Source: Candidatus Lokiarchaeum ossiferum
GTDB lineage: Archaea > Asgardarchaeota > Lokiarchaeia > Sigyniarchaeales > Promethearchaeaceae
DNA length: 64,000 nucleotides
NCBI GenBank assembly: GCA_025839675.1
Contig: CP104013.1
Location: forward strand, 3,041,121 to 3,105,120
Reading direction: 5' to 3'
This document shows, in pieces, positions 1 through 64,000 of this stretch. The notes below the pieces were generated by a model. The model did no database searches. It saw only the letters and a program-made list of their open reading frames with translations, and had not been told where the DNA came from. The position numbers were made by a program, and so were the translations under genes. Positions within the stretch are counted from its first letter, which is position 1, and every line of letters begins with the position of its first letter.

Positions 1-216
1 ATCATCTCCTATCAGATCCTTCAAAATCACTAAAATCGTATACCCACCTATGGAGAAATTTTGGATTTCATCATCAAACGCCGTAGTTACTAGATTAACT
101 ACCGCACTAAGTAATCCATTCCGGGTTTCATGACTCAAAAATTCATCAGATGAGTAAAATTGAACTTCACTCAAAGGTTTATCTTTATAAAGAATTGCAG
201 TTTCTAAGATTGCCAT
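1..216 (-). CDS. hypothetical protein, N-terminal 72 codons only (gene runs off window start)
   Basis: ATG at 216-214 (minus) opens an uninterrupted frame to position 1 (MAILETAILYKDKPLSEVQFYSSDEFLSHETRNG...). It is absent from the ORF track because no stop lies inside the window. It loosely resembles small longin/roadblock-type domains but has no diagnostic motif. Confidence 0.3.
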   Translation of the reverse strand, partial: MAILETAILYKDKPLSEVQFYSSDEFLSHETRNGLLSAVVNLVTTAFDDEIQNFSIGGYTILVILKDLIGDD

Positions 217-358
217 ATTAAAAACTTACTCCGAAGTTACAAGTTATTGATTACATTTGGGAATAGATATCATTGGAATATTAACATTCAATAAATATAG
301 TATGGTAACTATGTATATTAAAAAATAATATAAAGCTTTTTAGAAAAACTCACGAATC

Positions 359-1669
359 CTACAAAATTGTTTTAAACCTATCGACTAAAATTTTTCCAAC
401 AATTTTCTCTTCAGTCATTATTTCTATCTGGGGATTCCAATACATGTTTTGAACTTCACAATCATGGCGAAAAATGTCGAAATCGGTGTGATAGTAATGA
501 AGAAATTCAAAATATTCTTGCATAGCAATATTTTGCCATTTTGCAAATAGGGCAACCCGTATTCTTTGACCTTTAAATTTTATATCATAAACACAGGTGG
601 GAACGAATTTATGTTCTATCAACTTTTGAATGATGCAATTGTTTGCTATCATGGAGTCTTGTGTCGAAAAATCGGAAATCTGGAGTGTTATATTAACAGA
701 TTTCATAGAATCAACATTAATATCCGTAAGAAAGTCAAGAGATGATACAGACTCAATTGCTACGGCCATATTGTTAAGATCAGGAGCGGCATAAAGAGAA
801 AAGGTAAATTTGGAATTTTTACTAGAATTGATTCGCTTTTTCGTTTTTAAATTTCCATATATTTTAGTAAATTGCTTTAAATGATTCCAATCGTAAGTTT
901 TTTCTTTAATAACGATATTTTTCTCCGAAAAAATCGAAACATTTTGATATTTAGGATTTAAATCCTTATGAAATTCAGAATTAAAGATATGGAAGCCTAA
1001 ATCTTGGACAATAGAGGGAAGATATACTGTCTTTTCAACGATTTGCCCCAAAGTTGGCCAAGCATCATAAAATAAGCCAAATTCTAATAAATAATTCCCT
1101 TTTTTATTCTTATTTGCAATATAAAATGGAACAAATCCTTTTGGATAAGCCACATTCACAATTTTTCCAGTTGTATCTGGAAGTTGACCTCTATGAACTT
1201 GTAATTGAGTCGCAGCTGATGCCATTCGCGCAGATATGTAAAATGGATTACCTTGTTTGAGAAAGAAAAAAGCATATTCTCGAATTCGACGAGCTTCAAC
1301 GGATTGGAATCCTTTTTTTCTATATTTCTTTGATATAAGTGACAATCCCACTTCAATATATTCAACGTTTCTTTTACTAAACTGATAAAGTGCTATAGTT
1401 CCTACTATATCCTTCTTCTTTTTATGATAAAAAGCGCAAAAAATTGTACCTTGATCAAATTTAATATGACCACCAAAAGAATCATAAGTTTCCTTAATTA
1501 AGTTTTCAATATCTTTTTGGATTTTCTCATTCGCCTCTTGCTCAGTTTCAAAGATCGAGTCGAAATCAAATATCTTTCCGTTAATAATGTCAATAATGTG
1601 TATGTTTTTATGCTTCTCTTCGTGAGATTGTCGAATTCGATGGAGCTCATCAATTGACCAATGGATCAT
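359..1669 (-). CDS. hypothetical protein with GNAT-acetyltransferase-like segment
   Basis: 436-aa ORF. The segment VGTIALYQF...IEVGLSLISKKYRKKGFQSVEARRIREYA resembles the GNAT acetyl-CoA binding motif (R/Q-x-x-G-x-G/A); the rest is unassigned. Confidence 0.4.
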   Translation of the reverse strand: MIHWSIDELHRIRQSHEEKHKNIHIIDIINGKIFDFDSIFETEQEANEKIQKDIENLIKETYDSFGGHIKFDQGTIFCAFYHKKKKDIVGTIALYQFSKRNVEYIEVGLSLISKKYRKKGFQSVEARRIREYAFFFLKQGNPFYISARMASAATQLQVHRGQLPDTTGKIVNVAYPKGFVPFYIANKNKKGNYLLEFGLFYDAWPTLGQIVEKTVYLPSIVQDLGFHIFNSEFHKDLNPKYQNVSIFSEKNIVIKEKTYDWNHLKQFTKIYGNLKTKKRINSSKNSKFTFSLYAAPDLNNMAVAIESVSSLDFLTDINVDSMKSVNITLQISDFSTQDSMIANNCIIQKLIEHKFVPTCVYDIKFKGQRIRVALFAKWQNIAMQEYFEFLHYYHTDFDIFRHDCEVQNMYWNPQIEIMTEEKIVGKILVDRFKTIL

Positions 1670-1809
1670 CAGTTAATATTATATCAACTCGGGATAAAAT
1701 AATTTCCTATTTTTCTTAGGATTTAAATGAAAATACAGAATTGTATCAGTGACCATGCTATGTAATAAAATAATAAAGAAAAAGAAAAATGGAGTATTAT
1801 GGAAAAAAA

Positions 1810-2532
1810 TTAGTTTTCAGGTTCCTTCTTCAATCCAAAATACAATAGAAATGCCCCAGGAAGAATAAAGATCAATTGAAATATTAATCCAATCAATCGC
1901 ATCGGAGAATCAGTACTATCTCCACCAAATGTATGCGCGAGGTATGCGCCGATCAATTGTAAATCGAAACATAAGATACCGACTATACTTCGCATGAACT
2001 TTGTACTATACTTATTAGCGCCCATTTTAGTTTTTATTTTCATTGCATAATAAATTATAAAGACGAAGATTATTTGGGAACAAATCAATCCATAAAAACC
2101 AAAAGAAAACTCGTAAATGGGCACACCAGCAATAGGACCCCAACTAACCTGATCAAAAATGATCCCAATTATTGGTAACCCTAAAAGAGCAACAGCATAA
2201 ATTATTGTATATATCAATTGTCGTTTCAAAGTGTGAATTTGAGATGAAAAATACAAATTTAACACAAAATTAAGCAGTTGTACTCCTGCTAAAGTGGTGA
2301 AATATATGGTAAAAATATTAAGAACAATATTTACTGTCTCTTCATCAATTGCCCGATAAATAATATTCAGAATCAACCCCACTGAAATTGTTAAGAAATA
2401 TAAAGTGAGGGACATGGAAAGGCGATTTCTATTACGTTTAAGGAGAAAATAACTAAAAATAACGAATAAAATAATTATGATTCCGTTAAAAACAAAAGTT
2501 TGGATTTGTGGATTAGTTAATTGTTGAATCAT
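1810..2532 (-). CDS. integral membrane protein (multi-TM), unknown function
   Basis: 240 aa, about 7 hydrophobic helices, no recognisable catalytic motif. Confidence 0.5.
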   Translation of the reverse strand: MIQQLTNPQIQTFVFNGIIIILFVIFSYFLLKRNRNRLSMSLTLYFLTISVGLILNIIYRAIDEETVNIVLNIFTIYFTTLAGVQLLNFVLNLYFSSQIHTLKRQLIYTIIYAVALLGLPIIGIIFDQVSWGPIAGVPIYEFSFGFYGLICSQIIFVFIIYYAMKIKTKMGANKYSTKFMRSIVGILCFDLQLIGAYLAHTFGGDSTDSPMRLIGLIFQLIFILPGAFLLYFGLKKEPEN

Positions 2533-2653
2533 ATGTTTATTTCTGCATGAATTATATATAAATTGTAACTTTTACAAGAATTTTTCTAAATATTACAATT
2601 TTCAAGAATAATTTTTTCTTTTAATTAAATGAAAAGTTTTGGTTTGAAATATA

Positions 2654-3493
2654 TCATTTTTCATCCTTGAGTAAATCTCCGTACAATCGTTCAGCACATT
2701 CTGGGCAAATACTATGGGAAAATTCCGCTTCGGAATGATTTCTAATATACTGTTCAATTTGGGTCCATGATCCTCGGTCATCTCTAATTTTTTTACATTC
2801 AGAACATATTGGCAGATATCCTGTTAGTTCCTTCACTTGGGCTTTTGTGTGTTGTAATTCTTGATGTAATGCGGCGATTGTTGATCGAGGGCTTATCATT
2901 TTTTGAAGAGCAGGCCCATCAAGAATTTCATAGTCGGATTGCCCAGGATCAATTTGGTTTATTAAATCGTAGATCTTTAATTGCAGGTTTAAATTTTTTT
3001 GGTCCAGTTCGGTGCATGCTGTTGCTAAGTTTTGATTTTGAGAAGATAGTTCTTCCGCTTGTACTGTAATCTCCTTAAAAGCATGATACTCCATCCTTTC
3101 TGTCATAGAAGCGTAAATACATATTGGATTATATTGATCATCATAAACAATATTAGAAACGCAGTGTAAAATGTTAATCACGCCCATCTCACCGCACACT
3201 TCCATTTCTCCAATCCAATAACCATCTTCCTTCAAGTACTTAAACAGATGGTCAAAACCTTTTTCAGATTTAAGAATATTCTGAATTTTAGTCACTGAAA
3301 AATCATAAATATCTGGAAATCCAGTCATCATACGAAAATTCCGATTTGTATAGAGAATAGTTCCGTCAAAATGGAATAAAGCAACCCCCCCAAATGCATG
3401 TTCTAAAGCCATCTTCTGAATATGATCAATTGAATGTTCTGATGTTTTATAGGAATCGAAAAAAGAGGATTTTTCGAATGGGGTTTGTTTCAC
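2654..3493 (-). CDS. PAS-domain sensor protein with coiled coil and C-terminal Cys4 (CxxC...CxxC) module
   Basis: N-terminal PAS-like fold (FHFDGTILYTNRNFRMMTGF...), central coiled coil, C-terminal LPICSECKKIRDDRGSWTQIEQYIRNHSEAEFSHSICPECAERLY with two CxxC pairs. Confidence 0.55.
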   Translation of the reverse strand: MKQTPFEKSSFFDSYKTSEHSIDHIQKMALEHAFGGVALFHFDGTILYTNRNFRMMTGFPDIYDFSVTKIQNILKSEKGFDHLFKYLKEDGYWIGEMEVCGEMGVINILHCVSNIVYDDQYNPICIYASMTERMEYHAFKEITVQAEELSSQNQNLATACTELDQKNLNLQLKIYDLINQIDPGQSDYEILDGPALQKMISPRSTIAALHQELQHTKAQVKELTGYLPICSECKKIRDDRGSWTQIEQYIRNHSEAEFSHSICPECAERLYGDLLKDEK

Positions 3494-3639
3494 ATAGAAC
3501 TAAGGGGAACTTAAGTATTTGTGATAAATCTCTCCAAAGGTTTATAGAAAAGATTTCAAAATTTTTTTCACAATCTAATTTTATCTACTAACACGCATTT
3601 TTGAAGAATAATGTATCTTAAAATATTTGGAGGATTTTC

Positions 3640-4443
3640 ATGGCTGACACACCAATTGTAATCATCATTCTCGCGCTGATCTACATATCAAGTCTTTTAT
3701 TAATAGGGATATTTCTATTTTACAGAAGTATTAGAACTAAACTCCTTAACTTACGTGTTTTAGGGTTTGCTTTCATTGGTTTTGTAGTAGATTTTATTCT
3801 TATTTTTCTCAAAGCACCTTCTTTCTTAATAAATATTGTCGTGAATACTTGTTTTATTCTAATGACAATATTTACCTATACAACATTTTATAAAGGTCGC
3901 AAGAGATTGGGTACTATTTTTATAGGTGCAGTTATACTATTACGTTTAATAGACTGTATTGCACGGTGGAATTATAATTTCACCACACCACTTGCTTCTC
4001 CACTGACAGATGAGAGTAGAATCTATTATTATATCTTTCAATTCGCGGTTCGGGGAGAATTTACAATAGGTACCGGATGGCTTGCCTATTCATCACTCTC
4101 AACTTATTCCAATCAGAGAAAAATGGAAGACATTGAACCCTGGATCCAGAAACGTTATTTCATTTTAGGGATAGGAGCCCTAGTTTTTCTCTTGCAAGAT
4201 CTATTTGTTTTTCTGTTACCGATGGATGGGACAGGATACACAAGTCCACAAGGTATAATTGTAGGCATTTTACTGTTAATTGTCAGTATATTTTTTGGAG
4301 CCACTCAGCTAATTGGTTGGATCATGCCTCCCAAGTTGAAAGCCTATTTCAATCGCGATTTTCAACCCAAAAATAGTAACCAAAATGTTGATGAAGATCT
4401 TACTGAAGAAGAACTAATGAAGCAACTCATGGAGGATGTTTAA
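3640..4443 (+). CDS. integral membrane protein, unknown function
   Basis: 267 aa, 6-7 TM helices, acidic C-terminal tail. Confidence 0.5.
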   Translation: MADTPIVIIILALIYISSLLLIGIFLFYRSIRTKLLNLRVLGFAFIGFVVDFILIFLKAPSFLINIVVNTCFILMTIFTYTTFYKGRKRLGTIFIGAVILLRLIDCIARWNYNFTTPLASPLTDESRIYYYIFQFAVRGEFTIGTGWLAYSSLSTYSNQRKMEDIEPWIQKRYFILGIGALVFLLQDLFVFLLPMDGTGYTSPQGIIVGILLLIVSIFFGATQLIGWIMPPKLKAYFNRDFQPKNSNQNVDEDLTEEELMKQLMEDV

Positions 4444-4726
4444 CCCATTGAATTTGATTGTTCATTTTGGTAATTTTTTAGCTCAGCAATTAGGTAAACC
4501 AGAAAAAAGTGGCGCTATCTGCGGTTTCTTACGTTTAGCCTTAAAAAAAGAATATGGGACCGAGGGGGTTGATAATCTCACACCAGATAAACTTAAACAA
4601 GTTTTACAAGGAGAATTACAACAAAAACTAATGATTTTAAAGGTGACCACATTATCTGACGCCATCACTGCTACAATGAAGGAGGTTACCCGCAACCAAT
4701 CTTTATTTACCATGAATCAAGCTTAA
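4436..4726 (+). CDS. small hypothetical protein
   Basis: 96-aa ORF whose ATG overlaps the stop of the upstream membrane gene by 8 nt (possible translational coupling). Followed by an 11-T run. Confidence 0.3.
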   Translation: MFNPLNLIVHFGNFLAQQLGKPEKSGAICGFLRLALKKEYGTEGVDNLTPDKLKQVLQGELQQKLMILKVTTLSDAITATMKEVTRNQSLFTMNQA

Positions 4727-4744
4727 AGGGAGTTAGGTGGAAAG

Positions 4745-4755
4745 TTTTTTTTTTT
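4745..4755 (+). terminator. oligo-T archaeal-type terminator candidate
   Basis: Run of 11 T directly downstream of the 4436..4726 ORF and upstream of tRNA-Val. Confidence 0.3.
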
Positions 4756-4839
4756 CAAAATCTCATTTTGGATTAAATACAAAGTATTGAATCGAAAAAA
4801 ATAAAATGGATATTTCATTGATATCAATTGTATTTTAAA

Positions 4840-4915
4840 GGGCTGTTGGTTTAGTGGTTATAACGCCACGCTTACACCGTGGAAGTCCCCGGTTCAATCC
4901 CGGGACGGCCCACCA
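4840..4915 (+). tRNA. tRNA-Val (anticodon UAC), CCA encoded
   Basis: Folded by hand. Acceptor GGGCUGU/ACGGCCC (one GU), anticodon stem CCACG/CGUGG, loop CUUACAC gives anticodon UAC. T-arm CCCGG-UUCAAUC-CCGGG, 5-nt variable loop, discriminator A, then CCA. No intron. Confidence 0.9.
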
Positions 4916-4992
4916 TTTTTCTTTAAAATTTTTAGAATTAGGACTTTTTCAAAAAAAAATCGACTTTTAAAAAGTTCAGGAAGAACTATCAT

Positions 4993-5736
4993 TTGATAGT
5001 GATGGAACTAACAGATTTGCAATGTGATTTATCCGAATGTCATTGTATCCAAACACTCCAAAATGATCCTGAAGCAGTAAATTTCTTACAAAAGTTGCAC
5101 GTTCCCAAGGATATAATTGCAAATCTCTACTTATTTACTATTCCGTCTAAGAAAGATAATCTCTATCGTTTGCACTATGGTTATTTACAAGAACAAAACC
5201 CCTATCGCGAATTGGATTTTTCTTATGATGATTGGTTGCTGGCATATTTAGCTGCAGAAAATCGCGGTTGGGGGGTAATTTCACGGGACTATCACTTAAC
5301 CTATGGGATTCACCAATATCTCGATTATGCTGCATTTTTACCTGAAGATGTACATGACCTACCAGCAGATAGCATGCTGTTATTAGACACGAACATAGTA
5401 TTGCATTTTATGGAACAACGACAACATGATCAAAAAGAAATTATGCAAATGTTTTCTTTAAATCCATCAATTACATTTTTACTATCAGAAAACATACTCC
5501 GAGAACTCGGGAGAGTATATCAGAAAAAGTTCAGAACCCCGGATAAGTGGAATAAAAGAAAACCGAATCAAAACCTGAAAATGGATTTTCAAGAAATCCA
5601 AGAAGAAGAGATATACCAATTTGTGGATAATTTTACTCGTTTCGAATCAGGAAAACAGCGTCGATTGCGAAAACAGCAAAAAAAACAAAAGAATTACGCA
5701 AAATATAGATCGAAATGGACTCGGTGTTTGAATTAA
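4993..5736 (+). CDS. hypothetical protein
   Basis: 247-aa ORF with Cys-rich N-terminus (CDLSECHC) and basic C-terminal tail. An internal LLLDTNIVL segment is superficially PIN-like but misplaced for a PIN fold. Confidence 0.4.
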   Translation: MIVMELTDLQCDLSECHCIQTLQNDPEAVNFLQKLHVPKDIIANLYLFTIPSKKDNLYRLHYGYLQEQNPYRELDFSYDDWLLAYLAAENRGWGVISRDYHLTYGIHQYLDYAAFLPEDVHDLPADSMLLLDTNIVLHFMEQRQHDQKEIMQMFSLNPSITFLLSENILRELGRVYQKKFRTPDKWNKRKPNQNLKMDFQEIQEEEIYQFVDNFTRFESGKQRRLRKQQKKQKNYAKYRSKWTRCLN

Positions 5737-5784
5737 GTAAATTTTGATAAAGAATTAGAGTAAAAAAAGGTGAAAGAAAAAAAA

Positions 5785-6915
5785 TTAGATATTGGCTTTC
5801 TTCAATTTGGTTAATAAATATATCACTAACATAGAGATACCTGCAATTTCATAAACACCGGGGATTATTTGCCTGATATAGCTAACTTGGGCAGGATTTC
5901 TTCCTTCACCTCGAGCTGTATTTACAATGGAAAGCCCCCCTTTACCTAAGATTAATACATCATCCCCAAATGGAAGAATTGAGCGCATACCTCGTCGATC
6001 AACGAAGTCACACTGTTCAATAACACTCGGAAGATTGCTAATATCCAGAGTTTTCAACCCAGCGAAATAGTCGGCGATATAAAGAGTGGAATCTTCCATT
6101 AAAACAGATCGAGGAATACTATTTGAAAATACACTAATTCTGTATATATTGGTTAAATCGCTAATATTAAAAATAACCATCCCATGAATTCCATCCGAAA
6201 CAAACATCAAATCATTTGAAACAGATACGGTACGAGCTTCATCAATTATACTTATATAACCATAATCATCCACTTGCGAGACTAATTGAGGAGAAGTTGG
6301 ATCTTCGACATCATAAATAACTACACCTTGCCCATAGCTGGCTAAAAATACAATTCCATCTTGATATGCAATTCCACGTTCATTTTGATCAATTAATAGG
6401 ATTGGTGTTTCTGATAGCTTTTGAATATGTGAAGGGTCGCTCACATTCAAAATGAGAAATGACTCCCGAGTATTTAAATATGCAATTCCCTCGTTAACAT
6501 ATATCCCACAGATCATGCTTTCCCGGTCATAATGACCAATTTCTACAATATTAATGGGATCAGTAACATCATAGATCGAAAGATTTTTGTAATTAAGAAG
6601 ATAATATGTATGATTCACCAGAAAATGATCAGTTACATACGTATTGGGGACATTTACCTGATTAATCAGTTCGGGATTATTTGAATCACTAAAATTATAG
6701 ACCTTAAATCCATACAATTCATATGAAATGAAGGCAATATCATTATGAAGCGAAACTTTGACCCCATCATCACGACCAACATCTAAATACATTTCTTCGG
6801 TTGTGTCGTACCATATCCGAGTAGTAGAAATCTGAAAATAAATCCCTAATCCTCCAGAGAGGAGGACTAAGACGATTGAAAAAGTGATTAATAATTTTTT
6901 TTTATAAGCTTCCAT
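5785..6915 (-). CDS. LVIVD-repeat beta-propeller surface protein with N-terminal signal/TM and C-terminal TM anchor
   Basis: Repeated (I/V)YDVxDPxxP motifs (IYDVTDPINIV, ILNVSDPSHIQ, IYDVEDPTSPQ, IFNISDLTNIY) typical of LVIVD repeats. Hydrophobic N-terminus (LLITFSIVLVLLSGGLGIY) and C-terminus (IAGISMLVIYLLTKL). Confidence 0.55.
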   Translation of the reverse strand: MEAYKKKLLITFSIVLVLLSGGLGIYFQISTTRIWYDTTEEMYLDVGRDDGVKVSLHNDIAFISYELYGFKVYNFSDSNNPELINQVNVPNTYVTDHFLVNHTYYLLNYKNLSIYDVTDPINIVEIGHYDRESMICGIYVNEGIAYLNTRESFLILNVSDPSHIQKLSETPILLIDQNERGIAYQDGIVFLASYGQGVVIYDVEDPTSPQLVSQVDDYGYISIIDEARTVSVSNDLMFVSDGIHGMVIFNISDLTNIYRISVFSNSIPRSVLMEDSTLYIADYFAGLKTLDISNLPSVIEQCDFVDRRGMRSILPFGDDVLILGKGGLSIVNTARGEGRNPAQVSYIRQIIPGVYEIAGISMLVIYLLTKLKKANI

Positions 6916-7387
6916 GCTAGCACTTCCTTATTCTTACAATAGTCATGGATTTTTCATTTATAAATATTTTTCATTTCTTCTGAATTTTAGTCCATAATTT
7001 TTGATATATTTATTCTCGCTTCTAGAAATTTTTTACTGAGTTTAAGGGAGTAAAATGATCAAAGAGCAAAATTTTAGCAAAATTCATTGATTCCATTTTT
7101 CTGAAGAATCACTTAACGATTTGTTTATATTAAAAGGAAGATTAAATTTGAAAAGCAAAAGCAAGACCAAACTCATTTTTCAATTTATGGAAAATAATCA
7201 AGAAAGCACTAGACCGTTTATTTTCTTTTTGCAAAAAATAGAAAAAGAAAATATTTATATAGTCGGAGTTTTTAAATAAAAATAAGACCCTTGCAAAAAA
7301 TGGAAAAAGCAAGAAAATGTTTCAATGGTCTCAATTCTAATAATGATTCAAATTTATCAAAATCAGTGATATAAAGGAAGAAAACTA

Positions 7388-7618
7388 ATGGCAAACCCAA
7401 AAATATCGAGAAAAGTTTATCGAAATTTGCTTATTTTCATGTTTTGCACAGCAATCTTCGATTTAATTGTAGGTTTAATATCGGGACCGAATTATTTTTT
7501 AATTTTAATGGCAGGATCGTTGATTGTATCCTCATCGGGCATTTCAGCATTAATAATCAAACAATCAACCGAAATCCTTGATGTAACTAACCTTGGAGAA
7601 GAGCAAAATGGAATCTAA
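7388..7618 (+). CDS. small two-TM membrane protein (uncertain)
   Basis: 76-aa ORF with two hydrophobic helices; its 3' end overlaps the start of the CPBP protease gene. Confidence 0.25.
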   Translation: MANPKISRKVYRNLLIFMFCTAIFDLIVGLISGPNYFLILMAGSLIVSSSGISALIIKQSTEILDVTNLGEEQNGI

Positions 7619-44466: not shown

Positions 44467-44478
44467 AATAAAACACTC

Positions 44479-51030: not shown

Positions 51031-51083
51031 AAATAACCAATATATTCCTTTAACAAATCTTGCTATTTAAATTCAATTGAAGA

Positions 51084-52640: not shown

Positions 52641-52793
52641 CATGTCAGATCAAATACATTTCAGCGACGTGATTGCTATCATCATTCAGAAGATTCAACA
52701 AATATGGAACGAGTATGAATTCACCGAAAGTGATTTTTTGGAGGAAATACCCCCAGTTAAATTTCTTTCCAGTATAGATTATGACTTAATGTA
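52641..52793 (+). CDS. small acidic hypothetical protein (50 aa), uncertain
   Basis: ATG preceded by TGAGGA 10 nt upstream. MSDQIHFSDVIAIIIQKIQQIWNEYEFTESDFLEEIPPVKFLSSIDYDLM, followed by a T-run. Too short for the ORF track. Confidence 0.2.
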
Positions 52794-52899
52794 GAAATTT
52801 TTTTTATCTCCTTCTGTTAAAAAAAACAAATTTGTTTCGAGTTTTATTTTTAAAAATTATCAACACTATGATTTTTTTAATTAGTGCTTACAGTGTTAT

Positions 52900-54942: not shown

Positions 54943-54971
54943 AAAAAGAAGTTCCAAAAAAATATCTCAAT

Positions 54972-56564
54972 TCAAGTGTTCATTGTTTTGTACAATTTTT
55001 TATTATTGGAATAGAGTTTCTTGAAGACTTTGAAATTCTTATCATAGTGAGCCTTATACTTCTCTTGTGGTTTGAAGACTTTTTCAATTGGGATAAATTT
55101 TTTAGCAGCTTTGAAGGATTCTATTACACCCAATCCAATTCCACAAATGATTGCTGCTCCAGTTGCACCAGCATTTTGAGGATCTTCAGGCACTTCAACA
55201 ATCCTTCCTGTAACATCCGCAATTATTTGAGACCAAACATCAGATTTTGCACCGCCTCCAACGTACCTTAGTGTTTTTTGATAAGGAATTTTCAATTCTT
55301 CAGCTTCTAAACACCATCGAAAATTGAAAGCAACACCTTCCAATACTGAACGAATCATTTCACGCTTGCCAGTGTTGAGCCCCAAATTAAAGAACATCCC
55401 TCTCACATACGGATCTTGAGCGGGAGCGCGATTTCCATGAAGCCAAGGTGTGAAAATAATGTTAGTTGGTTCGATTTCGGACACTATGGCATTCATATAA
55501 TCAAAAAGACTATTAAATTCATCATTTTTATCAACAATATTTTGCTTATCTAGATATACTCCAATTTCATCCAAAGCAAGATGGTCTCTAACCCATTGCA
55601 AACAAATTCCTGTGGTTTCCATTTCAGCAATGTAATTATAATGATTTGGAATTCCTCCTAGTAAAGACACACAGAAATGGCCTAAATCTGCCATTCTTTT
55701 ATCAACATTTGAGACGACCCAACCACTAGTTCCTGCATATAAGTGAGTATCATATAAATCCGTTGCCCCTGATCCAATGGGAATATTGCTTGCATCACCA
55801 CCACCTGCATAGATTGGGATAGGACCTTCCAAACCCATTTCTAAAGCTGCTTGTTTAGTCAAATTTCCTACAATATCAGTAGCATTAACAACTTTTGGTA
55901 AGTGTTCCATATTTACTTTGACCATTTTACACAATCCTTTATGCCACCTGAGCTTTCTTGGACGAGTGTCATAAAGCCATGTTAGCTGAGCACTATCCCC
56001 GGTCATACAATAATTTCCCGTACACTTAAAAATAAGGTAATCTTTAACATCTAACCATTTATAAGTCTGCTCAAACACTTCGGGTTCGTTATTTTTTACC
56101 CATAGATATTTAAACAGTGGATCTTTAGCAGTTCCGGGTCCACCTCCTGTAATAATCAACCATATAATTATTTTAAACCAATGATAGCCCTCAATTCGGA
56201 TCAATCCATGAGCTAACACTTTTTCAAATTCCTTTACTGCTCTTCCATCCAACCAGATCATTGGTCTTCTTAAAACTTTCCCGTTTTTGTCTACCATTAT
56301 GGAACCTTGTAATTGTGTTGTAAAAGAGATACCATGGATATTTGAAGGGGAATGACCAGAATGCTTAATTATTTTTTTTGTACCAATACATATCGCATTC
56401 CACCAGTCCTTTTCATCTTGTTCCGCTCCACCATCTGGTGTTGTATAAAGAGTATATTCCGTCATAACACAATCAAGAAGTTTTACAGATCCTTTGATCT
56501 CATAAAGACAAGATTTCATCCCAGTTGTTCCAACATCATGAGCTATTACATATTTTACTTCCAT
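54972..56564 (-). CDS. FGGY-family carbohydrate kinase
   Basis: N-terminal IAHDVGTTGMKSCLY (FGGY N-domain) and C-terminal GGGAKSDVWSQIIADV. 530 aa. Confidence 0.8.
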   Translation of the reverse strand: MEVKYVIAHDVGTTGMKSCLYEIKGSVKLLDCVMTEYTLYTTPDGGAEQDEKDWWNAICIGTKKIIKHSGHSPSNIHGISFTTQLQGSIMVDKNGKVLRRPMIWLDGRAVKEFEKVLAHGLIRIEGYHWFKIIIWLIITGGGPGTAKDPLFKYLWVKNNEPEVFEQTYKWLDVKDYLIFKCTGNYCMTGDSAQLTWLYDTRPRKLRWHKGLCKMVKVNMEHLPKVVNATDIVGNLTKQAALEMGLEGPIPIYAGGGDASNIPIGSGATDLYDTHLYAGTSGWVVSNVDKRMADLGHFCVSLLGGIPNHYNYIAEMETTGICLQWVRDHLALDEIGVYLDKQNIVDKNDEFNSLFDYMNAIVSEIEPTNIIFTPWLHGNRAPAQDPYVRGMFFNLGLNTGKREMIRSVLEGVAFNFRWCLEAEELKIPYQKTLRYVGGGAKSDVWSQIIADVTGRIVEVPEDPQNAGATGAAIICGIGLGVIESFKAAKKFIPIEKVFKPQEKYKAHYDKNFKVFKKLYSNNKKLYKTMNT

Positions 56565-56823
56565 TCAAAATTCTTCCTATAATCAAAATTTTCCTTAAAA
56601 AACTATAAAGCTTTCTAATTTTACGTGAAAAACCAAGAATTTAACCTCTAAAAGAGTATCTAGTTTTGTATTTTTTTACTAATCAAAAACATAAATAATA
56701 CCAAAAAAAGTTAATTGGAGGGGAGTGCTTTAGATTTTGAGTGCAAAAATAGTCATATTAATATTGGGAAATGGCAATAAGTAACCAATTTCTTTGTATT
56801 ACCGTACTGAAGAGTGAGAAAAC

Positions 56824-58164
56824 ATGGCAAAACAGAACACTACGAGTCAAAAAATAGTATTGCTAAGTCTTTGTAATGTGATGTGGGGATTAATACCATT
56901 ACCCGCATCAAAGTTATTTGCAAATTATTCTACCTTTCTGATTATTTTCGCTCGTTTTTTAATGATGACAATCTTCACTCTGGGGTTTATATTAATATTT
57001 ATATTGTATCAGCAAATGCATTTAAAAAAAAAAAAAAAGCAATCTATTAAAATTAAGGAAATTGTGTCGTATCTAGCAAGTAAAAATGTGGAATTTTTTA
57101 ATTTTCCTCAATGGCTATATTTGCTGTTCCTCGCGGTTTTTGGAATGAATTTGATGACAATTCTCTTTTTTTGGGGTTTAAAATCGGTGGGTGTAATAAT
57201 AACATCAATCGGAGTCATTTTTTCTTTAGTTGTAGTCACAGCTGTTAATTGGGGGCGGGGAAAAGAAGAAATGTCTCCTTTCAAAGCTTTATACTTAATC
57301 ACATTAATAGGAGCAACAGTTATACTCGGGATTATTAGCCAGAATCAACAATCTGGAGAAAATCAACAGTTTTCGTGGAATACAATCGGAATTATTATTG
57401 CTTATGGCTTAACTCTTTCATTTTTTGTCATCAGCAGTTCAAAAGACAAGATGAGTCCAAAAGAATTTACCCTTCTACGAATAAATAAAAACTATAGACT
57501 AATCAGAACATTTCTAAAATTAGGAATCCTTTCTTTTTTTGCCTCATTAACCTTCATTCCATTACAATTAATCTTCGGAATTCTACCTTTAGGAAATGAA
57601 ATATCTGGAGAAATCAGCCGATTTTTCTCAGAAGTTCACCTTTGGTGGACTATTTCATGGACTGGGAATGGAATTATCCTGATTTTAATCTGTACAATTG
57701 CGCCATATTTTTTATATTATTTTCTTGCAGCAAACTGGCCAAAACATACTTCTTTTGATTTATGGGTAGGAGTTTTACAATTAATAGAACCCATAATTAA
57801 CCTCATATTGGGGGTAACAATTTTAGAGGAAAATTTCCCTATTTCATGGTTAGTAGTGATCATATTCTTGATGGGTATCGCAATAGTCACCAGATATCTC
57901 AGTGAAACTGAAGCCCAGATTTTTGCCTTATTTCTTCTAAAAACAAAACCGAATCAAAATAAAGAAGCAATGACCATTGCGTACTCGTTTAAGGCGGTTC
58001 GGCAAGTTTTTTCTCTGATTGGAAATTATGACCTTATGCTGGATGTTCAGCTCCACTCATCACAAGCGTTAAATAAATTTATCCAACAGACTATCCTCAG
58101 TCTTCCAGGTCTAATTGAATATGATATGCTGATTATTACAAATACTGAAATGGATCGAAACTGA
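56824..58164 (+). CDS. EamA/DMT-like transporter fused to C-terminal RAM (Lrp/AsnC ligand-binding-like) domain
   Basis: About 10 TM helices with EamA-like duplicated 5-TM architecture. The C-terminal about 90 aa (AYSFKAVRQV...YDLMLDVQLHSSQALNKFIQQTILSLPGLIEYDMLIIT) resembles the stand-alone RAM proteins encoded just downstream. Confidence 0.5.
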   Translation: MAKQNTTSQKIVLLSLCNVMWGLIPLPASKLFANYSTFLIIFARFLMMTIFTLGFILIFILYQQMHLKKKKKQSIKIKEIVSYLASKNVEFFNFPQWLYLLFLAVFGMNLMTILFFWGLKSVGVIITSIGVIFSLVVVTAVNWGRGKEEMSPFKALYLITLIGATVILGIISQNQQSGENQQFSWNTIGIIIAYGLTLSFFVISSSKDKMSPKEFTLLRINKNYRLIRTFLKLGILSFFASLTFIPLQLIFGILPLGNEISGEISRFFSEVHLWWTISWTGNGIILILICTIAPYFLYYFLAANWPKHTSFDLWVGVLQLIEPIINLILGVTILEENFPISWLVVIIFLMGIAIVTRYLSETEAQIFALFLLKTKPNQNKEAMTIAYSFKAVRQVFSLIGNYDLMLDVQLHSSQALNKFIQQTILSLPGLIEYDMLIITNTEMDRN

Positions 58165-58199
58165 ATAAAAAATGAAAAAAAAGAATGTGATTCAACACC

Positions 58200-58442
58200 A
58201 TGGGAATTAAAATAACGAGTTTTATTAAAATTGAATTTGGTAATTCTGAGAAGTTTAATGAAGAATTAAAACAGATTCCCGAAGTAGTTAAAATTTTATC
58301 TATTTCGGGTGATTTTGACCTGTTAATCCATATATTGGTAGAAAAAAGTGAAGATTTAGTTGAAATAATTGAAAAAATCGAGAAAATCCCAGGAATTAAA
58401 GAAATTAACAGCCATTATGTTTTAGCGGAATGGGAAAAATAA
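58200..58442 (+). CDS. stand-alone RAM-domain (Lrp/AsnC C-terminal-like) protein
   Basis: 80 aa. SGDFDLLIHILVEKSEDLVEIIEKIEKIPGIKEINSHYVL fits the beta-alpha-beta-beta-alpha-beta RAM pattern. Confidence 0.6.
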   Translation: MGIKITSFIKIEFGNSEKFNEELKQIPEVVKILSISGDFDLLIHILVEKSEDLVEIIEKIEKIPGIKEINSHYVLAEWEK

Positions 58443-58461
58443 ATTCAAGGAGAAAAGTCTA

Positions 58462-58719
58462 ATGAAAGTCAAGATATTATCTTTTGTTAAAGTAGAATTG
58501 GGTCGAACCATGGAAATTGTGGAGAAATTACAATTGATAAAAAATGTTAAGGAAATTTATTATATCACTGGTGAATATGATCTTGTGATGAAAATTGAAG
58601 GCGAATCGAGTGAAGAACTTCAAAAAATCATGATGACTCAAATTGACATAATAAAAGGAATTAAAAAACTAAACAGTCATTTAATGGTAAAAAGATGGAT
58701 GACAGATTCTGAAGGTTAA
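58462..58719 (+). CDS. stand-alone RAM-domain protein (paralog)
   Basis: 85 aa. TGEYDLVMKIEGESSEELQKIMMTQIDIIKGIKKLNSHLMV. AAGGAG SD 9 nt upstream. Confidence 0.6.
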   Translation: MKVKILSFVKVELGRTMEIVEKLQLIKNVKEIYYITGEYDLVMKIEGESSEELQKIMMTQIDIIKGIKKLNSHLMVKRWMTDSEG

Positions 58720-59030
58720 TTAAAGCGATTTTTATCTCTTTTTCGATACTTTTCTAAAACATTTTTTAATTCAAGGGTTAAATCTACTTTATAATGGTTT
58801 GCTAAACAAATTAGGCTGAAAACAGTATCAGCTAATTCCTCACCAATGGAATTTGTTGGTTCAGAGGCCTTTTTATGTTTAATATTCACCTTTGCATTGA
58901 TTTCACGGGATAATTCCCCAACTTCTTCAACAACGGATGCAAGCATAGATAAAGGAGGCCAGTATCCACCAAAATCCGTAATAAGAGAATCTACATCTTT
59001 TTGAATTTGCTTTAAAGTTTTTTCAATCAT
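58716..59030 (-). CDS. MazG-like nucleotide pyrophosphohydrolase
   Basis: EEVGELSREI and EELADTVFSLICLAN (EExxE/EExxD all-alpha NTP-PPase motifs). 104 aa. Confidence 0.6.
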   Translation of the reverse strand: MIEKTLKQIQKDVDSLITDFGGYWPPLSMLASVVEEVGELSREINAKVNIKHKKASEPTNSIGEELADTVFSLICLANHYKVDLTLELKNVLEKYRKRDKNRFN

Positions 59031-59155
59031 GAAGTAATCACGAAGTATTGAAATATTCTTAAGTTATTTTTTAAAAGGGTTTTAAAAATATACAATTTTC
59101 CCTTTGGAAAAATAAAGAAGTACAAATAATTATAAATCGAGATTGTGAAAAAAAA

Positions 59156-59980
59156 ATGGCTGATGATTTTAGTTTTAACTGTCCCCGATGTGGGAAAGAA
59201 CCTAAACGTGGGAAATTTTTAGGATCAGAAATATGGCATGATGAATGTCTTGTCGAAGATATGGTGGAAAAGTTTAATTCTGGAACTCCACGTGAAGAAA
59301 TCGAAAAAACTTTAAAACGAGTAAAAGATAAAGGTGTTGAACAAAATGTGGGTTTGAAATGTGGTTGGCCTGAATATCAACCACCTAAATCTCAAGAGGA
59401 AATTGAAGCAGAGTATCAAGCAGAACTAGAAGCTGCAGAAGCAAAAGCAGATGCTGAAGCCGCGATTAAAGCCGCTGAAGAAGCTGAGAGTGAAGAAGCT
59501 AAAGCTGCTGCAGAAGCTGCAGTAGCTGAAGCACAATCGAAGGCTGATAATGCTTCTAAAGTTGCAGAAAATGCAAAAATAATTCAAACTCCTTCATCTC
59601 AAAATTCTGGAGCCCCGGCATCTACATCTTCAATGCCTTCAACACCTTTGACCCCAATGGGAGCACCTCAATTTGCCCCATATCCACCAATGACCGCACC
59701 ACAGATGGCTCCAATGCCTATGATGGCCCCATCGAGATTAGAAGCTTTTAAGCCCGCACCCACCGATGAAGTTGTGAGAAATATTGCAATTTCAGCAATG
59801 GAAGTATGCTTAAAAACTATGAAAAAAGATGTGGAATATGGAAAGTTATTATTTAAATTCATGAAAGAATTCAACTGGGAAGCTGAAGAAGATGATGATG
59901 TTGAAAAAAGTGAGGATTCTGATAAAGAAGATGTTGATGAAGAAATTGAAGATGCTAAACCATTCCTAGTTGAAGATTAA
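59156..59980 (+). CDS. acidic A/E-rich hypothetical protein with N-terminal CxxC...C pair
   Basis: FNCPRCGKEPKRGKFLGSEIWHDEC at the N-terminus; long AEAKA low-complexity region; acidic tail. Confidence 0.45.
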   Translation: MADDFSFNCPRCGKEPKRGKFLGSEIWHDECLVEDMVEKFNSGTPREEIEKTLKRVKDKGVEQNVGLKCGWPEYQPPKSQEEIEAEYQAELEAAEAKADAEAAIKAAEEAESEEAKAAAEAAVAEAQSKADNASKVAENAKIIQTPSSQNSGAPASTSSMPSTPLTPMGAPQFAPYPPMTAPQMAPMPMMAPSRLEAFKPAPTDEVVRNIAISAMEVCLKTMKKDVEYGKLLFKFMKEFNWEAEEDDDVEKSEDSDKEDVDEEIEDAKPFLVED

Positions 59981-59986
59981 TTTTTT

Positions 59987-61753
59987 TTATTTTGTTCTAC
60001 TCCCACATTTGTTGCAAAACTTGAAATTTTTATTTAACTTTGCACCACAATTAGGACATTCAATCATATTTTTATTCGAAACATCTCCAATAACAGAATG
60101 AGAAGTTCCAAAAATATTTGATTTTGCAGAAGTTACATTTGAAGGACCAGTGTTCGTTCCAGATGTAGTTTTTTTTAAAAAGGAAGGAATATAATCAGTT
60201 TGATTGGCAGATTTCTCAATGAATGGAGATCGACTTTCTTTATTTGTAGATTTGGGAATAATTGGTTTTTTATTGACATCTACATTTGACATAAAACCCC
60301 ATGAAGTTTTTGGTTCTTTTTTTTTGATATTAGATTGAATTGAATCAGGTTTTGAAGGAGCATCAAAAAAAGAATAGGTTTTTTTCTTAGGAATGATGGA
60401 TTTTGATTCGGTTGTTCCCTGTTTTGCTGGTAATGAATCTAAAAATGAATAGGATTTATTATTATCATTTGAAGATTTTTGAAATTCATTAGGTTTTTTT
60501 GGGCTGTCAAAAAATGAATAATTTTGAGTAGGTTTGATAATTTTTGGTTCTTTTTTCTCAGACCGAGTATTTCTAAAGTCAGGAGATGTAAATGGAGCAG
60601 GCTTCTTTGTATTTGATTTTGAAGATTGAGCGAGAAATGGGTTCCCTTTGATTTCTGATGAATTTCCAGATATGGATGAAGGAATGCCTTCTGAAGAAAA
60701 TGATGGAGGAGAAGGTTTAGGGGGTATTTTTACAGTTGGTGGTTCTTGCTTCGAATTTGATGGAAATTGTGAATTAATTTGAACTGGAGGTAATTTGACC
60801 TCTGATTTTTTAGGAATATTTTGCTTTTGAATTGGGGTATTTTGAACGGGAGTTTTTGGTGAAAACCAATCAGGTTCTTCTACTATTGAAGATGTAAGAA
60901 TATCATTACTTTTTTTCAATGCTTCTTTCTGAGGTTCCGAAGTAATATTTTCTTTAGAATTACCCAAAGACAATATTGAAGTCTCATCTATTTTCGGAAT
61001 ATTGAAAGGGTTGCTTGGTAATTTATTAGAAACAGGATTTTTTGATAATGAAGAATATATTGGAGCGGGTTTAGGTTTATGAGAAACACTCGGCATAGGT
61101 TTATTTGATACTGGATCCTTAGGAGCAAACACAGGTATAGGTTGAGGTATTTTTTTTGAAATAGATTCGACGTCTATTGTTTTTTCATTATTAGGTTGCT
61201 CAGATAAGGAAGGAGAACCCCCTAACATTGCTGGAGGGATATCTTCTCCAATCATTAGCAAAGCAAGAATTCCAAAAACATCTCCAACTCCATCTCCACT
61301 TTTCGCACTAGACTCAACATAAAACATGTTAAGATCTTTTGCAACCTCTTCAGCTTCATTTCTTGAAATAACCCTTTGATCAACAAGATCTTTCTTATTT
61401 CCAACTAAAAGCATTGGAATAGAACCGGATTCCTTTTTAACCTCATCCATCCACTTAGGAATATGATCAAAACTCTCACGATTTGTAAGATCAAAAAGAA
61501 TGATACAACCCATTGAACCTTTGTAATAAAGAGGACGAACATACTGGAATCTCTCCTGTCCACCTGTATCCCATATTTGAAGTTTTACATTATGATTATT
61601 AATATGGATGGTTTTGACTGCAAATTCCACACCGATAGTTAATTTATAGTTTTCTTGAAAAAAGCCTTGACTAAAGCGAACCACAAGAGCAGTTTTCCCA
61701 CAGCCACCATCACCTACAGCAACACATTTAAATAGATAATCATAATTGTCCAA
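59987..61753 (-). CDS. Ras-superfamily small GTPase (Rab/Ras-like) fused to about 400-aa disordered linker and C-terminal zinc ribbon
   Basis: G1 GDGGCGKT, G2 Thr, G3 WDTGGQE, G4 GNKKD, G5 SAK in the first about 175 aa. Then a P/S/K/N-rich region with three YSF(F/L)D(S/A)P-type repeats. It ends with CPNCGAKLNKNFKFCNKCGSR. Confidence 0.8.
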   Translation of the reverse strand: MDNYDYLFKCVAVGDGGCGKTALVVRFSQGFFQENYKLTIGVEFAVKTIHINNHNVKLQIWDTGGQERFQYVRPLYYKGSMGCIILFDLTNRESFDHIPKWMDEVKKESGSIPMLLVGNKKDLVDQRVISRNEAEEVAKDLNMFYVESSAKSGDGVGDVFGILALLMIGEDIPPAMLGGSPSLSEQPNNEKTIDVESISKKIPQPIPVFAPKDPVSNKPMPSVSHKPKPAPIYSSLSKNPVSNKLPSNPFNIPKIDETSILSLGNSKENITSEPQKEALKKSNDILTSSIVEEPDWFSPKTPVQNTPIQKQNIPKKSEVKLPPVQINSQFPSNSKQEPPTVKIPPKPSPPSFSSEGIPSSISGNSSEIKGNPFLAQSSKSNTKKPAPFTSPDFRNTRSEKKEPKIIKPTQNYSFFDSPKKPNEFQKSSNDNNKSYSFLDSLPAKQGTTESKSIIPKKKTYSFFDAPSKPDSIQSNIKKKEPKTSWGFMSNVDVNKKPIIPKSTNKESRSPFIEKSANQTDYIPSFLKKTTSGTNTGPSNVTSAKSNIFGTSHSVIGDVSNKNMIECPNCGAKLNKNFKFCNKCGSRTK

Positions 61754-61860
61754 TTTCTTGTAACCTCTTATTTTGTTTGAATTTCTTTTTTTAACGTTTT
61801 CTTTATATTACTTTAATTAGTATCACATAATGCTAATAATTTTTGTATATAGTATGATTA

Positions 61861-62712
61861 TTAATTTTTACTACCGCATATAGGACAAATCTTCCAATTA
61901 TTATTCATATTAGCTTTGCAAATAGCACATTTCTTATTAGTTTCGAGCACTTGAACATTTTTTAAATAGCTATTCTTTTTTTTAGGTGGTGAGGTCATTC
62001 TCCCATCAATAATTTGAGAGAAAGATAATAATGCGTTTTGGGATGATTCTAAATCCCCATAATCGGCCGAAAAAGGATTATAAGGGATAATGGGTCGGAT
62101 AACTTTACTTGAATCTATTTGAGAATTGGTTCCTTCTTCTTCAATTGGTTGATTTATATGAGAAATTTTATGAGTGTTGGCATCATTTTCGATAATCTCA
62201 TTCTCACTTGATTTAATATTATGAGAAGATGCCGATCTATTAAATTCTTGCTTATCTACAGAAGATCTCTCTAAAATCATTGTTTCTTCACCAACTATTA
62301 GATCTTGAACAACATTTTCGATAATAGACTCTTCTGCAGTAAGTTTATTATTGGAAGCTGATATTTTTGCGTCCGAATTTTCGTTTTTATTAGGAATTGA
62401 TTCTTCATACAAAACTTCCTTCTGGCCTGCAATTTCAAAATAATATTGCCCATTATTATCATCAATATACTCTTTTCCATCAGATCCAACAATTTTAAAA
62501 AGATAGAGGATCTTATTTCCAAATGGCACATTTGGAAGGGTTATTGAATATGAATGGCCCAAATTATTCATTTTTACAGAATACCATGAATGAGCATTAT
62601 CAGTACTAAAAATGAGAAATAAATTGGACAAATCACCTTCAATATTGCATTTTATTTCCACTGAAATTTTAGAATCAATTTCTGATTGTTGACTCATCCC
62701 AAGATTATTCAT
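61861..62712 (-). CDS. beta-rich N-terminal domain protein (CBM20/48-like) with disordered linker and C-terminal zinc ribbon
   Basis: The N-terminus ...WYSVKMNNLGHSYSITLP...ILYLFKIVGSDGKEYIDDNNGQYYFEI resembles glycogen/starch-binding (CBM48/20) or Ig-like E-set domains. The C-terminus CAICKANMNNNWKICPICGSK is paralogous to the ribbon of the neighbouring GTPase. Confidence 0.45.
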   Translation of the reverse strand: MNNLGMSQQSEIDSKISVEIKCNIEGDLSNLFLIFSTDNAHSWYSVKMNNLGHSYSITLPNVPFGNKILYLFKIVGSDGKEYIDDNNGQYYFEIAGQKEVLYEESIPNKNENSDAKISASNNKLTAEESIIENVVQDLIVGEETMILERSSVDKQEFNRSASSHNIKSSENEIIENDANTHKISHINQPIEEEGTNSQIDSSKVIRPIIPYNPFSADYGDLESSQNALLSFSQIIDGRMTSPPKKKNSYLKNVQVLETNKKCAICKANMNNNWKICPICGSKN

Positions 62713-62867
62713 TCTAATATTAGATTATAATTGTTGCATTATTAAATTTAGTCATGTTTGAAAGGTATTTAAGAGGAAATTTCTCAATTAGCCTATGAGT
62801 GAAAAGTCAATTGAATAATATCTAGATAATATTAGGTTTATAATTCAAATATTGAGATTCTTATAAT

Positions 62868-63185
62868 ATGGCGTCTATGAATGATTTAGTAAATCTTTAT
62901 AAATTAGAACAAGCAATTCAAATTAATAAAATACAAGGAAATTACCAACAATTGCTAATCTTATATGATAAAATAATTGAAATGAAATCAAAATTATCAA
63001 ATAAATTAGGATTGGCCAAAACAATTTCTGAAAAAGGATTTTTATTAGAACAATTAGGATATCATCGGGAAGCCTTGGAACAATTCAATTTTGCAAAACA
63101 TATAGCGCGAGGAACTCCAAATAAAGATTTCATTTGTATTATTGAAAATAGAATTGAAAAAATTGAAAATTCTCAATTGTTATGA
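62868..63185 (+). CDS. small helical hypothetical protein
   Basis: 105-aa ORF, helix-repeat (TPR-like) character, no motif. Confidence 0.35.
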   Translation: MASMNDLVNLYKLEQAIQINKIQGNYQQLLILYDKIIEMKSKLSNKLGLAKTISEKGFLLEQLGYHREALEQFNFAKHIARGTPNKDFICIIENRIEKIENSQLL

Positions 63186-63227
63186 GGAATTATCTCGTTA
63201 TTTGTTTGAAAAGGTGAAAAAAAAAAC

Positions 63228-63545
63228 TTACCACATATAAGCGCCCATTATTGCGCTGGTTAGTAATCCAATAAAAATCAAACCGAAATACCAATTGTTA
63301 AACAATCCGAGATTATTTTTATGTTCACTTATATAACTTTTCATTCCTAAACACAAGCCGGCTAGCAGTAAATAATACATAATTGGAACCATAAAAGTTG
63401 AAGTAAAAGCCCATTTCATTATAAAGAATAAGAGGGTCGCAATAATATCAATAACTATGAAGGTCAATCCCATATATGTAAAAATTACTTCAGAACCTTG
63501 TTTTTGAGATTCTTTTTTCTGTGCTATTATCGACATATTTTTCAT
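63228..63545 (-). CDS. small membrane protein (3 TM)
   Basis: 105-aa hydrophobic ORF. Confidence 0.35.
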   Translation of the reverse strand: MKNMSIIAQKKESQKQGSEVIFTYMGLTFIVIDIIATLLFFIMKWAFTSTFMVPIMYYLLLAGLCLGMKSYISEHKNNLGLFNNWYFGLIFIGLLTSAIMGAYMW

Positions 63546-63585
63546 GTTTTAAAATATATGCAGAATTAAAAAAATTTTGGAACAA

Positions 63586-63990
63586 TTAACGGGTTTTTAG
63601 ATCAATTATCGCACGTGCTAAATCCCCATTCGCATCCTTCAGAGCTTTTTTTGCCACTTTATCAGATACTCCCGTTTGCATGGCGACCAATTTAATATCT
63701 TCTTCAGTAATCTCAACAGATAGGGTTTCTTCGACATTCTCACTATTCTCAATAAAATTTTCATCTAGTATTTCGGCATCTTCGACACCAGAAGCAGAGA
63801 TATCCTGCTCAGAATTTGATTCGTAAGCATAATTCCCCGCTGAACTTTCCTTAGCACTTCCTATTACTTGATATACTTCCATTCCTTCTTGAACTACTTT
63901 AATAATTTGAGGTTCTTCAATGATTAAATCGTTTCCATCAGCACTTTGGATAATCACACGTTTTGCATCTATTTGTTCCATGTTTTCCAT
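63586..63990 (-). CDS. nac: nascent polypeptide-associated complex alpha subunit (NAC domain + UBA domain)
   Basis: N-terminal NAC-like beta region ([23 protein letters not shown]) and C-terminal UBA ([36 protein letters not shown]), with an acidic insertion. Confidence 0.6.
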
Positions 63991-64000
63991 TGCTTGTCCT

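Follow-up and report, generated by a model that had tools for sequence, protein, structure and literature searches.

Which organism does a stretch of DNA come from when genes for proteins of eukaryotic type stand in it next to archaeal ones, and do the former make up a functional unit? Both questions are raised by the 64,000-nucleotide stretch analyzed here in full (hereafter, the window). A preliminary description made from the letters alone proposed an Asgard, Lokiarchaeia-like host. The proposal was based on genes for a Rab/Ras-like GTPase, longin/roadblock-like proteins, a ubiquitin-like protein, MBF1, an alpha-type NAC with a UBA domain, a major vault protein (MVP) homolog, a eukaryote-like HMG-CoA synthase (HMGCS) and a DEAD-box helicase, on archaeal hallmarks and on composition. 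The window is 90% coding and contains 57 non-overlapping open reading frames (ORFs) of at least 60 amino acids (aa) and two tRNA genes. Its low GC content (33.8%) and K/N/I-rich proteome had been described correctly: the encoded proteins are rich in L and in I (9.5%), K (8.0%) and N (5.6%).

Ten window proteins were looked up by exact sequence. Eight of them matched, at every residue, entries of Candidatus Lokiarchaeum ossiferum B-35, which span accessions UYP46302 to UYP46336 and locus tags NEF87_002587 to NEF87_002621. The offsets between accession numbers equaled the offsets between ORFs: counted from kamD (UYP46302), the DEAD-box helicase is found at +15, thiolase at +19, HMGCS at +20, HflX at +21, a longin-domain protein at +24, MfnA at +25 and the Rab-like GTPase at +34. 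Since all eight agree, the window is collinear with the B-35 record at least between 19.9 and 61.8 kb (positions 19897 to 61753). At the DNA level, positions 1–7669 (7,669 nt) and 49987–64000 (14,014 nt) were 100% identical, with no mismatches or gaps, to contigs independently assembled from public read sets, and the same junctions recurred in several independent assemblies of read sets. Binning best hits by taxonomy, one of the checks that the preliminary description had called for, gave an answer that could not be stronger: the exact B-35 matches and, for MVP and HMGCS, other named relatives that were almost all Asgard.

The closed genome of strain Loki-B35 (CP104013) is 6,035,313 bp long, as is the contig that carries the eight matching entries, and encodes 5,119 proteins, of which 258 (5%) are eukaryotic signature proteins (ESPs), with small GTPases and longin domains reported to be enriched among them; the published phylogeny puts the strain in Lokiarchaeia (Rodrigues-Oliveira et al., Nature 2023, PMC9834061). 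The NEF87 locus tags do not occur in the supplements of that paper. Between CP104013 and the window no difference was detected: the proteins are identical, gene order is collinear and DNA is 100% identical where compared. This identity to a published genome, like the domain and fold assignments given below, was shown. We conclude that the window is almost certainly one unbroken 64-kb piece of the closed Ca. L. ossiferum Loki-B35 chromosome, roughly NEF87_00257x–00262x. The organism is an Asgard archaeon (Promethearchaeota) of the class Lokiarchaeia. Given the exact protein and DNA identity, the Asgard host had been inferred correctly, and the sequence is already public, so that the identity of the host is not new.

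Several points weigh against this assignment. DNA-level identity covers 21.7 of the 64 kb; in the middle of the window the evidence consists of exact protein matches and collinear accessions. Two of the ten proteins, MVP and MBF1, gave no exact-sequence match. There is no rRNA or ribosomal-protein gene in the 64-kb window and thus no independent phylogenetic marker. The lack of exact matches for MVP and MBF1 is likely due to start codons of the longest ORFs that differ from the annotated ones; MVP is 100% identical along 548 aa to an L. ossiferum database entry.

That entry bears on a different source, a second, closely related Ca. L. ossiferum strain with a 6,274,825-bp genome (XEO/WKT22 accessions), since the 548-aa MVP is listed with the 6.27-Mb contig of this strain. 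The thiolase is likewise identical in both strains. However, seven proteins (the Rab-like GTPase, HMGCS, the longin protein, the DEAD-box helicase, MfnA, HflX and KamD) have their exact match in a B-35 (UYP) entry, while their versions from the second strain are different members of the same 90% clusters; its helicase, for example, is 543 aa long, compared to 549 aa in the window. It is therefore extremely unlikely that the window comes from the second strain. Even less probability, practically a negligible one, is left for a non-Asgard archaeon or a chimeric assembly in which eukaryote-like genes result from contamination or recent transfer. The lysine-fermentation genes described below are bacterial-type, and NAC, aMBF1, ThiS, the DEAD-box helicase, encoded CCA and low GC are all present in many non-Asgard archaea, but the window matches exactly the genome of a cultured organism, closed as a single contig, its junctions are the same across several independent read-set assemblies, its GC content is uniform (29–37%) and the nearest relatives of both the MVP homolog and HMGCS are Asgard. 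The exact protein matches and the 100% DNA identity refute such an origin. Loki-B35 remains the source to which the observations point.

Although the host was named correctly, not all of the genes listed in support of it carry the argument. The aMBF1, NAC, ThiS and DEAD-box helicase families are found throughout Archaea or in every domain of life and indicate "archaeon" at most; encoded CCA does not discriminate either. Among the listed genes only those for the GTPase, the longin protein and MVP tell Asgard from other archaea. The result has value as a calibration, Lokiarchaeia having been recognized from gene content and composition alone. As a finding it has little weight, for it re-identifies a published cultured Asgard archaeon that was sequenced and studied for its ESP content. 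A useful by-product is a cultivable Asgard strain with an MVP homolog and a complete lysine-fermentation gene set, both of which can be tested experimentally.

Table 1. Features of the window discussed in the text (positions in the window; bits are profile scores)
Feature	Position	Strand	Basis of assignment
159-aa protein, first 72 codons in window	1-216	-	full gene on independent contig, L005:7454-7933
tRNA-Val(TAC), encoded CCA then TTTTT	4840-4915	+	ARAGORN, Rfam
kdd, kamA, kamB, kamC, kamD, kamE (operon)	19108-26556	-	NCBIfam/Pfam
Short MVP homolog, 551 aa (longest ORF), 548 aa (database entry)	31178-32833	-	Pfam
kal	33856-34293	+	NCBIfam Kal
kce	39820-40641	+	NCBIfam Kce
DEAD-box RNA helicase	40648-42297	-	Pfam DEAD 146, Helicase_C 109 bits; exact match UYP46317
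CoA-transferase subunits A/B (acetate/3-oxoacid CoA-transferase)	42443-43782	-	
DUF35/ChsH2 OB-fold zinc-ribbon protein	44029-44466	-	Pfam OB_ChsH2_C, zf-ChsH2
Thiolase	44479-45753	-	Pfam Thiolase_C_1/Thiolase_N; NF004720 443 bits (cut-off 420); exact match UYP46321
tRNA-Ser(GCT), encoded CCA then T-rich run	45929-46014	-	ARAGORN, Rfam
HMG-CoA synthase, 540 aa	46176-47798	+	Pfam HMG_CoA_synt_N/C; exact B-35 match
aMBF1, N-terminal zinc ribbon and C-terminal HTH_3	49250-49849	-	Pfam HVO_2718 33.4 bits, HTH_3
ThiS/MoaD-type beta-grasp protein	50006-50251	-	Pfam ThiS 31 bits (cut-off 22.5)
Longin-domain protein, 217 aa	50377-51030	-	AlphaFold2 fold; exact B-35 match
MfnA-type tyrosine/aspartate decarboxylase	51084-52337	-	TIGR03812 415 bits (cut-off 299); exact match UYP46327
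Rab-like small GTPase, 588 aa	59987-61753	-	Pfam Ras; exact match UYP46336 / NEF87_002621
NAC, alpha-type, with UBA	63586-64000	-	Pfam UBA_HYPK 36.8, NAC 28.5 bits

The first of the three discriminating genes encodes a Rab-like GTPase, as had been proposed. Pfam search gave scores of 186 bits for Ras (cut-off 21.6), 111 bits for Roc and 26.9 bits for Zn_Ribbon_1. The G domain occupies residues 1–170 and is followed by a low-complexity linker of ~390 aa, rich in P, S, K and N, and by a C-terminal zinc ribbon of the CxxC...CxxC type. All motifs G1–G5 are present, with G1 GDGGCGKT, G3 DTGGQE, G4 NKKD and G5 SAK readable in the translation. The top matches among Protein Data Bank (PDB) sequences were Rab30, Rab1, Rab8, Sec4 and the Thorarchaeota Rab 7ezb (147–157 bits). 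Likeness to the eukaryotic Rab1, Rab8 and Sec4 and to 7ezb lies in the G domain and its motifs. Unlike eukaryotic Rabs, which carry a lipid anchor there, the window GTPase has no C-terminal cysteine prenylation motif (CC, CxC or CAAX) for membrane attachment: its C-terminus, ...CPNCGAKLNKNFKFCNKCGSRTK, is part of the four-cysteine zinc ribbon that, together with the linker, sets the protein apart.

The GTPase gene is the middle one of three adjacent genes (59156–62712), each of which encodes a zinc ribbon and a long low-complexity region. In the product of the plus-strand gene at 59156–59980, an N-terminal CxxC...C motif is combined with an acidic tail rich in A, E and P, with a 9-nt tandem repeat at 59474–59531. 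The product of the minus-strand gene at 61861–62712 consists of an N-terminal domain of ~100 aa, a linker and a C-terminal zinc ribbon. Elsewhere in the window, at 7593–8372 (plus strand), an Rce1-like membrane protein of the CPBP/CAAX-protease family is encoded (86.9 bits). Members of this family are common among prokaryotes, and as the Rab-like GTPase lacks a CAAX box, no link between the two is implied.

The sequence of the longin protein is a weak guide to its fold: Fuz_longin_1 scored 21 bits, under the Pfam cut-off of 26.1, a sub-threshold match that recurs in eight of 16 family members, and the family profile found nothing among PDB sequences even at E ≤ 10. An AlphaFold2 model based on a 16-sequence alignment had a mean predicted local distance difference test (pLDDT) score of 82.6, compared to 40 for an unusable model based on a four-sequence alignment. 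In the former, an N-terminal beta-beta-alpha-beta-beta-beta-alpha domain (residues 1–111) is followed by a C-terminal helical domain, and the predicted structure was superposable on known longin domains. Sequence identity to the longins of TRAPP (Trs23/Bet5), Mon1–Ccz1, Sec22b and SR-alpha and to the Lokiarchaeota Roadblock-Longin protein 8yqg was only 12–17%. The window protein differs from them in its extra helical domain of ~100 aa, in its score below the Pfam gathering threshold and in the narrowness of its family, which had 20 representatives in an exhaustive representative search among 1.84 billion proteins. The family is lineage-restricted.

The preliminary description had spoken of longin/roadblock-like proteins. 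The longin part of this claim stood, on the AlphaFold2 model; the roadblock part did not, as neither a Robl_LC7 profile match nor the roadblock topology was found. A second protein of this kind is possibly the 159-aa protein at the start of the window, which is a candidate longin/roadblock-like protein. It had no Pfam match at E ≤ 5 and no significant similarity to the longin protein. On the independent contig its gene is followed, outside window position 1, by a gene for a 269-aa gelsolin-domain protein, another Asgard ESP (L005:7917-8726).

The third gene encodes a short MVP homolog, in agreement with what had been proposed. It comprises vault repeats, an SPFH-like shoulder domain and a portion of the cap helix. 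MVP_shoulder (91.6 bits, cut-off 25), Vault (35.8 bits, cut-off 27) and Vault_3 (34.7 bits, cut-off 28.8) all scored above their Pfam cut-offs, and alignment to rat MVP (4hl8, 861 aa) gave 163 bits over rat residues ~280–745. With 551 aa and a partial alignment, the protein falls short of a full MVP, which has nine repeats, a shoulder, a cap helix and a cap ring (~860–890 aa) and assembles into the 78-mer vault. Its relatives fall into about 45 clusters at 90% identity, with lengths of 480–570 aa, and eukaryotic MVPs come next. All named relatives are Asgard (Promethearchaeota, Sigyn-, Loki- and Odinarchaeota). An alignment-based scan of genome contigs, which is not a census, found MVP in the genomes of two GTDB species, both Asgard; when one MVP sequence alone served as the query of such a scan, no relatives came up. 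The two other Asgard MVP loci have no neighbor gene in common with the window. Next to the window MVP gene, and divergent from it, lies a gene for an HFX_2341-like/DUF6293 winged-helix protein (32950–33681, plus strand).

Asgard MVPs with fewer repeats have been published, with ten homologs counted (Nat Microbiol 2026, PMC12962969). The window protein is like them in having few repeats compared to the nine of rat MVP, in its shoulder and cap-helix regions, in its Asgard kin and in having eukaryotic MVPs as next closest relatives. In contrast to the ten homologs of that work, about 45 clusters are seen here, one of them in a cultured strain; L. ossiferum goes unmentioned in the main text of PMC12962969.

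For the Rab-like GTPase, the longin protein and MVP, any role in the cell is putative. It is conceivable, if rather doubtful, that L. ossiferum MVP is part of a small vault-like shell and that, separately, the Rab-like GTPase and the longin protein could form a Rab/GEF-like pair (GEF, guanine nucleotide exchange factor); the latter idea arises because the longin fold matches GEF subunits of TRAPP and Mon1–Ccz1. Were a vault-like shell to assemble, the prokaryotic origin of vaults would be directly testable in an existing culture.

Do the ESP genes of the window form a functional island? A trafficking module made up of the Rab-like GTPase, the longin protein, the ubiquitin-like protein and MVP might be read from the facts that the longin gene adjoins the ThiS-like gene, that the GTPase gene lies between two further genes for zinc-ribbon, low-complexity proteins and that a gelsolin-domain gene is found directly beyond the start of the window. 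Yet the three strict ESP genes are located at 31, 50 and 60 kb, ~10–19 kb apart, with housekeeping and metabolic genes between them. They are three (four when the 159-aa candidate is counted) among 57 ORFs, a count in line with the 258 of 5,119 proteins (5%) in the whole genome. The lack of shared neighbors at the two other Asgard MVP loci also speaks against a module. The island was rejected on the grounds of average density and scattered genes, and we consider it very unlikely. Because its ESP density is average and its ESP genes are scattered, the window is a typical sample of the genome.

As such a sample, the window has an archaeal backbone that includes MfnA, aMBF1 and NAC as well as the thiolase/DUF35/HMGCS entry into the mevalonate pathway and transcription stops of the oligo-T type. 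A few ESPs (Rab-like GTPase, longin protein, short MVP) are scattered over it at the average density of the genome. The mixture of archaeal and eukaryotic genes is the normal make-up of a genome of this kind.

Of the backbone genes, HMGCS had been called eukaryote-like, which is not borne out. Among NCBIfam models the protein scored best against bacterial-type TIGR01835 (238 bits), followed by PRK04262 (193 bits), archaeal TIGR00748 (159 bits) and another archaeal model (139 bits); eukaryotic TIGR01833 ranked fifth with 120 bits (cut-off 286), and all HMGCS models of NCBIfam stayed under their cut-offs. PDB matches were to bacterial mvaS (145 bits), archaeal 6esq (123 bits), plant (95 bits) and human (76 and 68 bits) enzymes. 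Assemblies of Loki-, Prometh-, Hermod- and Helarchaeota contain many relatives of 537–564 aa. Judged by these similarities, the protein is best regarded as a long HMGCS of Asgard type. Prokaryotic HMGCS models match it in two stretches, and an insertion after about residue 260 is suggested. One 542-aa relative (P0161) bears the source name "Candidatus Nanopelagicaceae bacterium"; since all other named relatives are Asgard, it probably comes from a mis-binned contig.

The thiolase and DUF35 genes noted in the preliminary description were confirmed (Table 1). Their products are the archaeal acetoacetyl-CoA thiolase pair, the partner of HMGCS. All three components of the thiolase/HMGCS/DUF35 complex of Methanothermococcus thermolithotrophicus (6esq/6et9) are also present, and adjacent, in the window. 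Unlike the M. thermolithotrophicus enzyme, which has ~350 aa, window HMGCS has 540 aa and is closer to bacterial mvaS than to the archaeal enzyme. The arrangement of the genes differs as well: the mevalonate-entry genes (44029–47798) are split between the strands, with thiolase and DUF35 on the minus strand, HMGCS transcribed divergently on the plus strand and the tRNA-Ser(GCT) gene between them.

The assignment of MfnA and the presence of two tRNAs with an encoded CCA, tRNA-Val and tRNA-Ser, each followed by a T-run, also proved right. Oligo-T termination was supported by the excess of T-runs after stop codons: in 29 of 56 genes a sense-strand run of at least five T was found within 40 nt past the stop codon, compared to 10.8% of 40-nt windows in coding sequence, where A-runs are commoner than T-runs. 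The claim of TATA-box promoters is beyond statistical proof in DNA this rich in AT. Counts of TTTAWA upstream of 34 genes had no strand asymmetry and only a vague hump at 20–60 nt, and neither strand nor position gave a signal above the background of intergenic DNA that is 76–79% AT.

Metabolism supplies the largest coherent unit of function in the window, a complete gene set for fermentation of lysine to butyrate and acetate. Equivalog models of NCBIfam were matched above cut-off by KamA (625 bits, cut-off 525), KamB (409, 210), KamC (548, 300), KamE (394, 280), Kdd (261, 200), Kce (448, 382) and Kal (201, 160), and KamD was recognized by Pfam (903 bits). All Kam, Kdd, Kce and Kal enzymes of the fermentation are thus present, together with the CoA-transferase subunits A/B; KamB and KamC constitute the reactivase, and the set is bacterial-type. 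Interspersed with its parts are genes for two dehydrogenases, one for acyl-CoA and one of the short-chain type, and for an Lrp/AsnC regulator. The other cultured Lokiarchaeon, Ca. P. syntrophicum MK-D1, reportedly has an amino-acid-fermenting lifestyle, with which a complete lysine-fermentation set fits. No paper describing the lysine pathway in Asgard archaea was found in an incomplete literature search, and novelty is not claimed.

Of the remaining genes, the one described as coding for a ubiquitin-like protein belongs to the ThiS/MoaD beta-grasp family and is not ubiquitin of the eukaryotic type. No match to ubiquitin (PF00240) was obtained, matches to MoaD-type NCBIfam models were all under cut-off, and no E1 or E2 gene is present in the window. 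The real gene is likely 50006–50215, encoding 69 aa, in agreement with a 69-aa gene call on independent contig L001. The protein ends in ...ISGGK, one residue past the di-glycine; trimming would be needed if it were used as a conjugatable modifier. Its gene lies directly downstream of the longin gene.

MBF1 has the aMBF1 architecture of zinc ribbon and HTH_3. The CxxC...CxxC motif is visible in the translation, but the score against TIGR00270 was 77.8 bits, under the cut-off of 110. The NAC protein does carry both the NAC and UBA domains; its N-terminus is cut off by the end of the window, and the full protein has 187 aa (gene at L001:2949-3512). The basic repeat tail ascribed to the DEAD-box helicase is also real. 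It comprises ~150 terminal residues rich in K, R, S and N, among which APKR-type repeats and a recurring RRKNRNG motif are seen, and is encoded by DNA with tandem repeats at 40792–40897.

Also of note is a 1,106-aa ORF with a high content of N, K, I, F and L (34279–37599, minus strand), which had no Pfam match at E ≤ 0.01. An 855-bp gene-free gap (37600–38454) lies upstream of it, and a search of this gap against Rfam with permissive settings found no family. An 88-nt repeat is present at 37553–37640 and 37942–38029, with 81% identity between the copies: the second copy corresponds to the first codons and the leader of the 1,106-aa ORF, with the start codon lost. The same gap contains a 32-nt tandem pair at 37795–37826 and 37833–37864.

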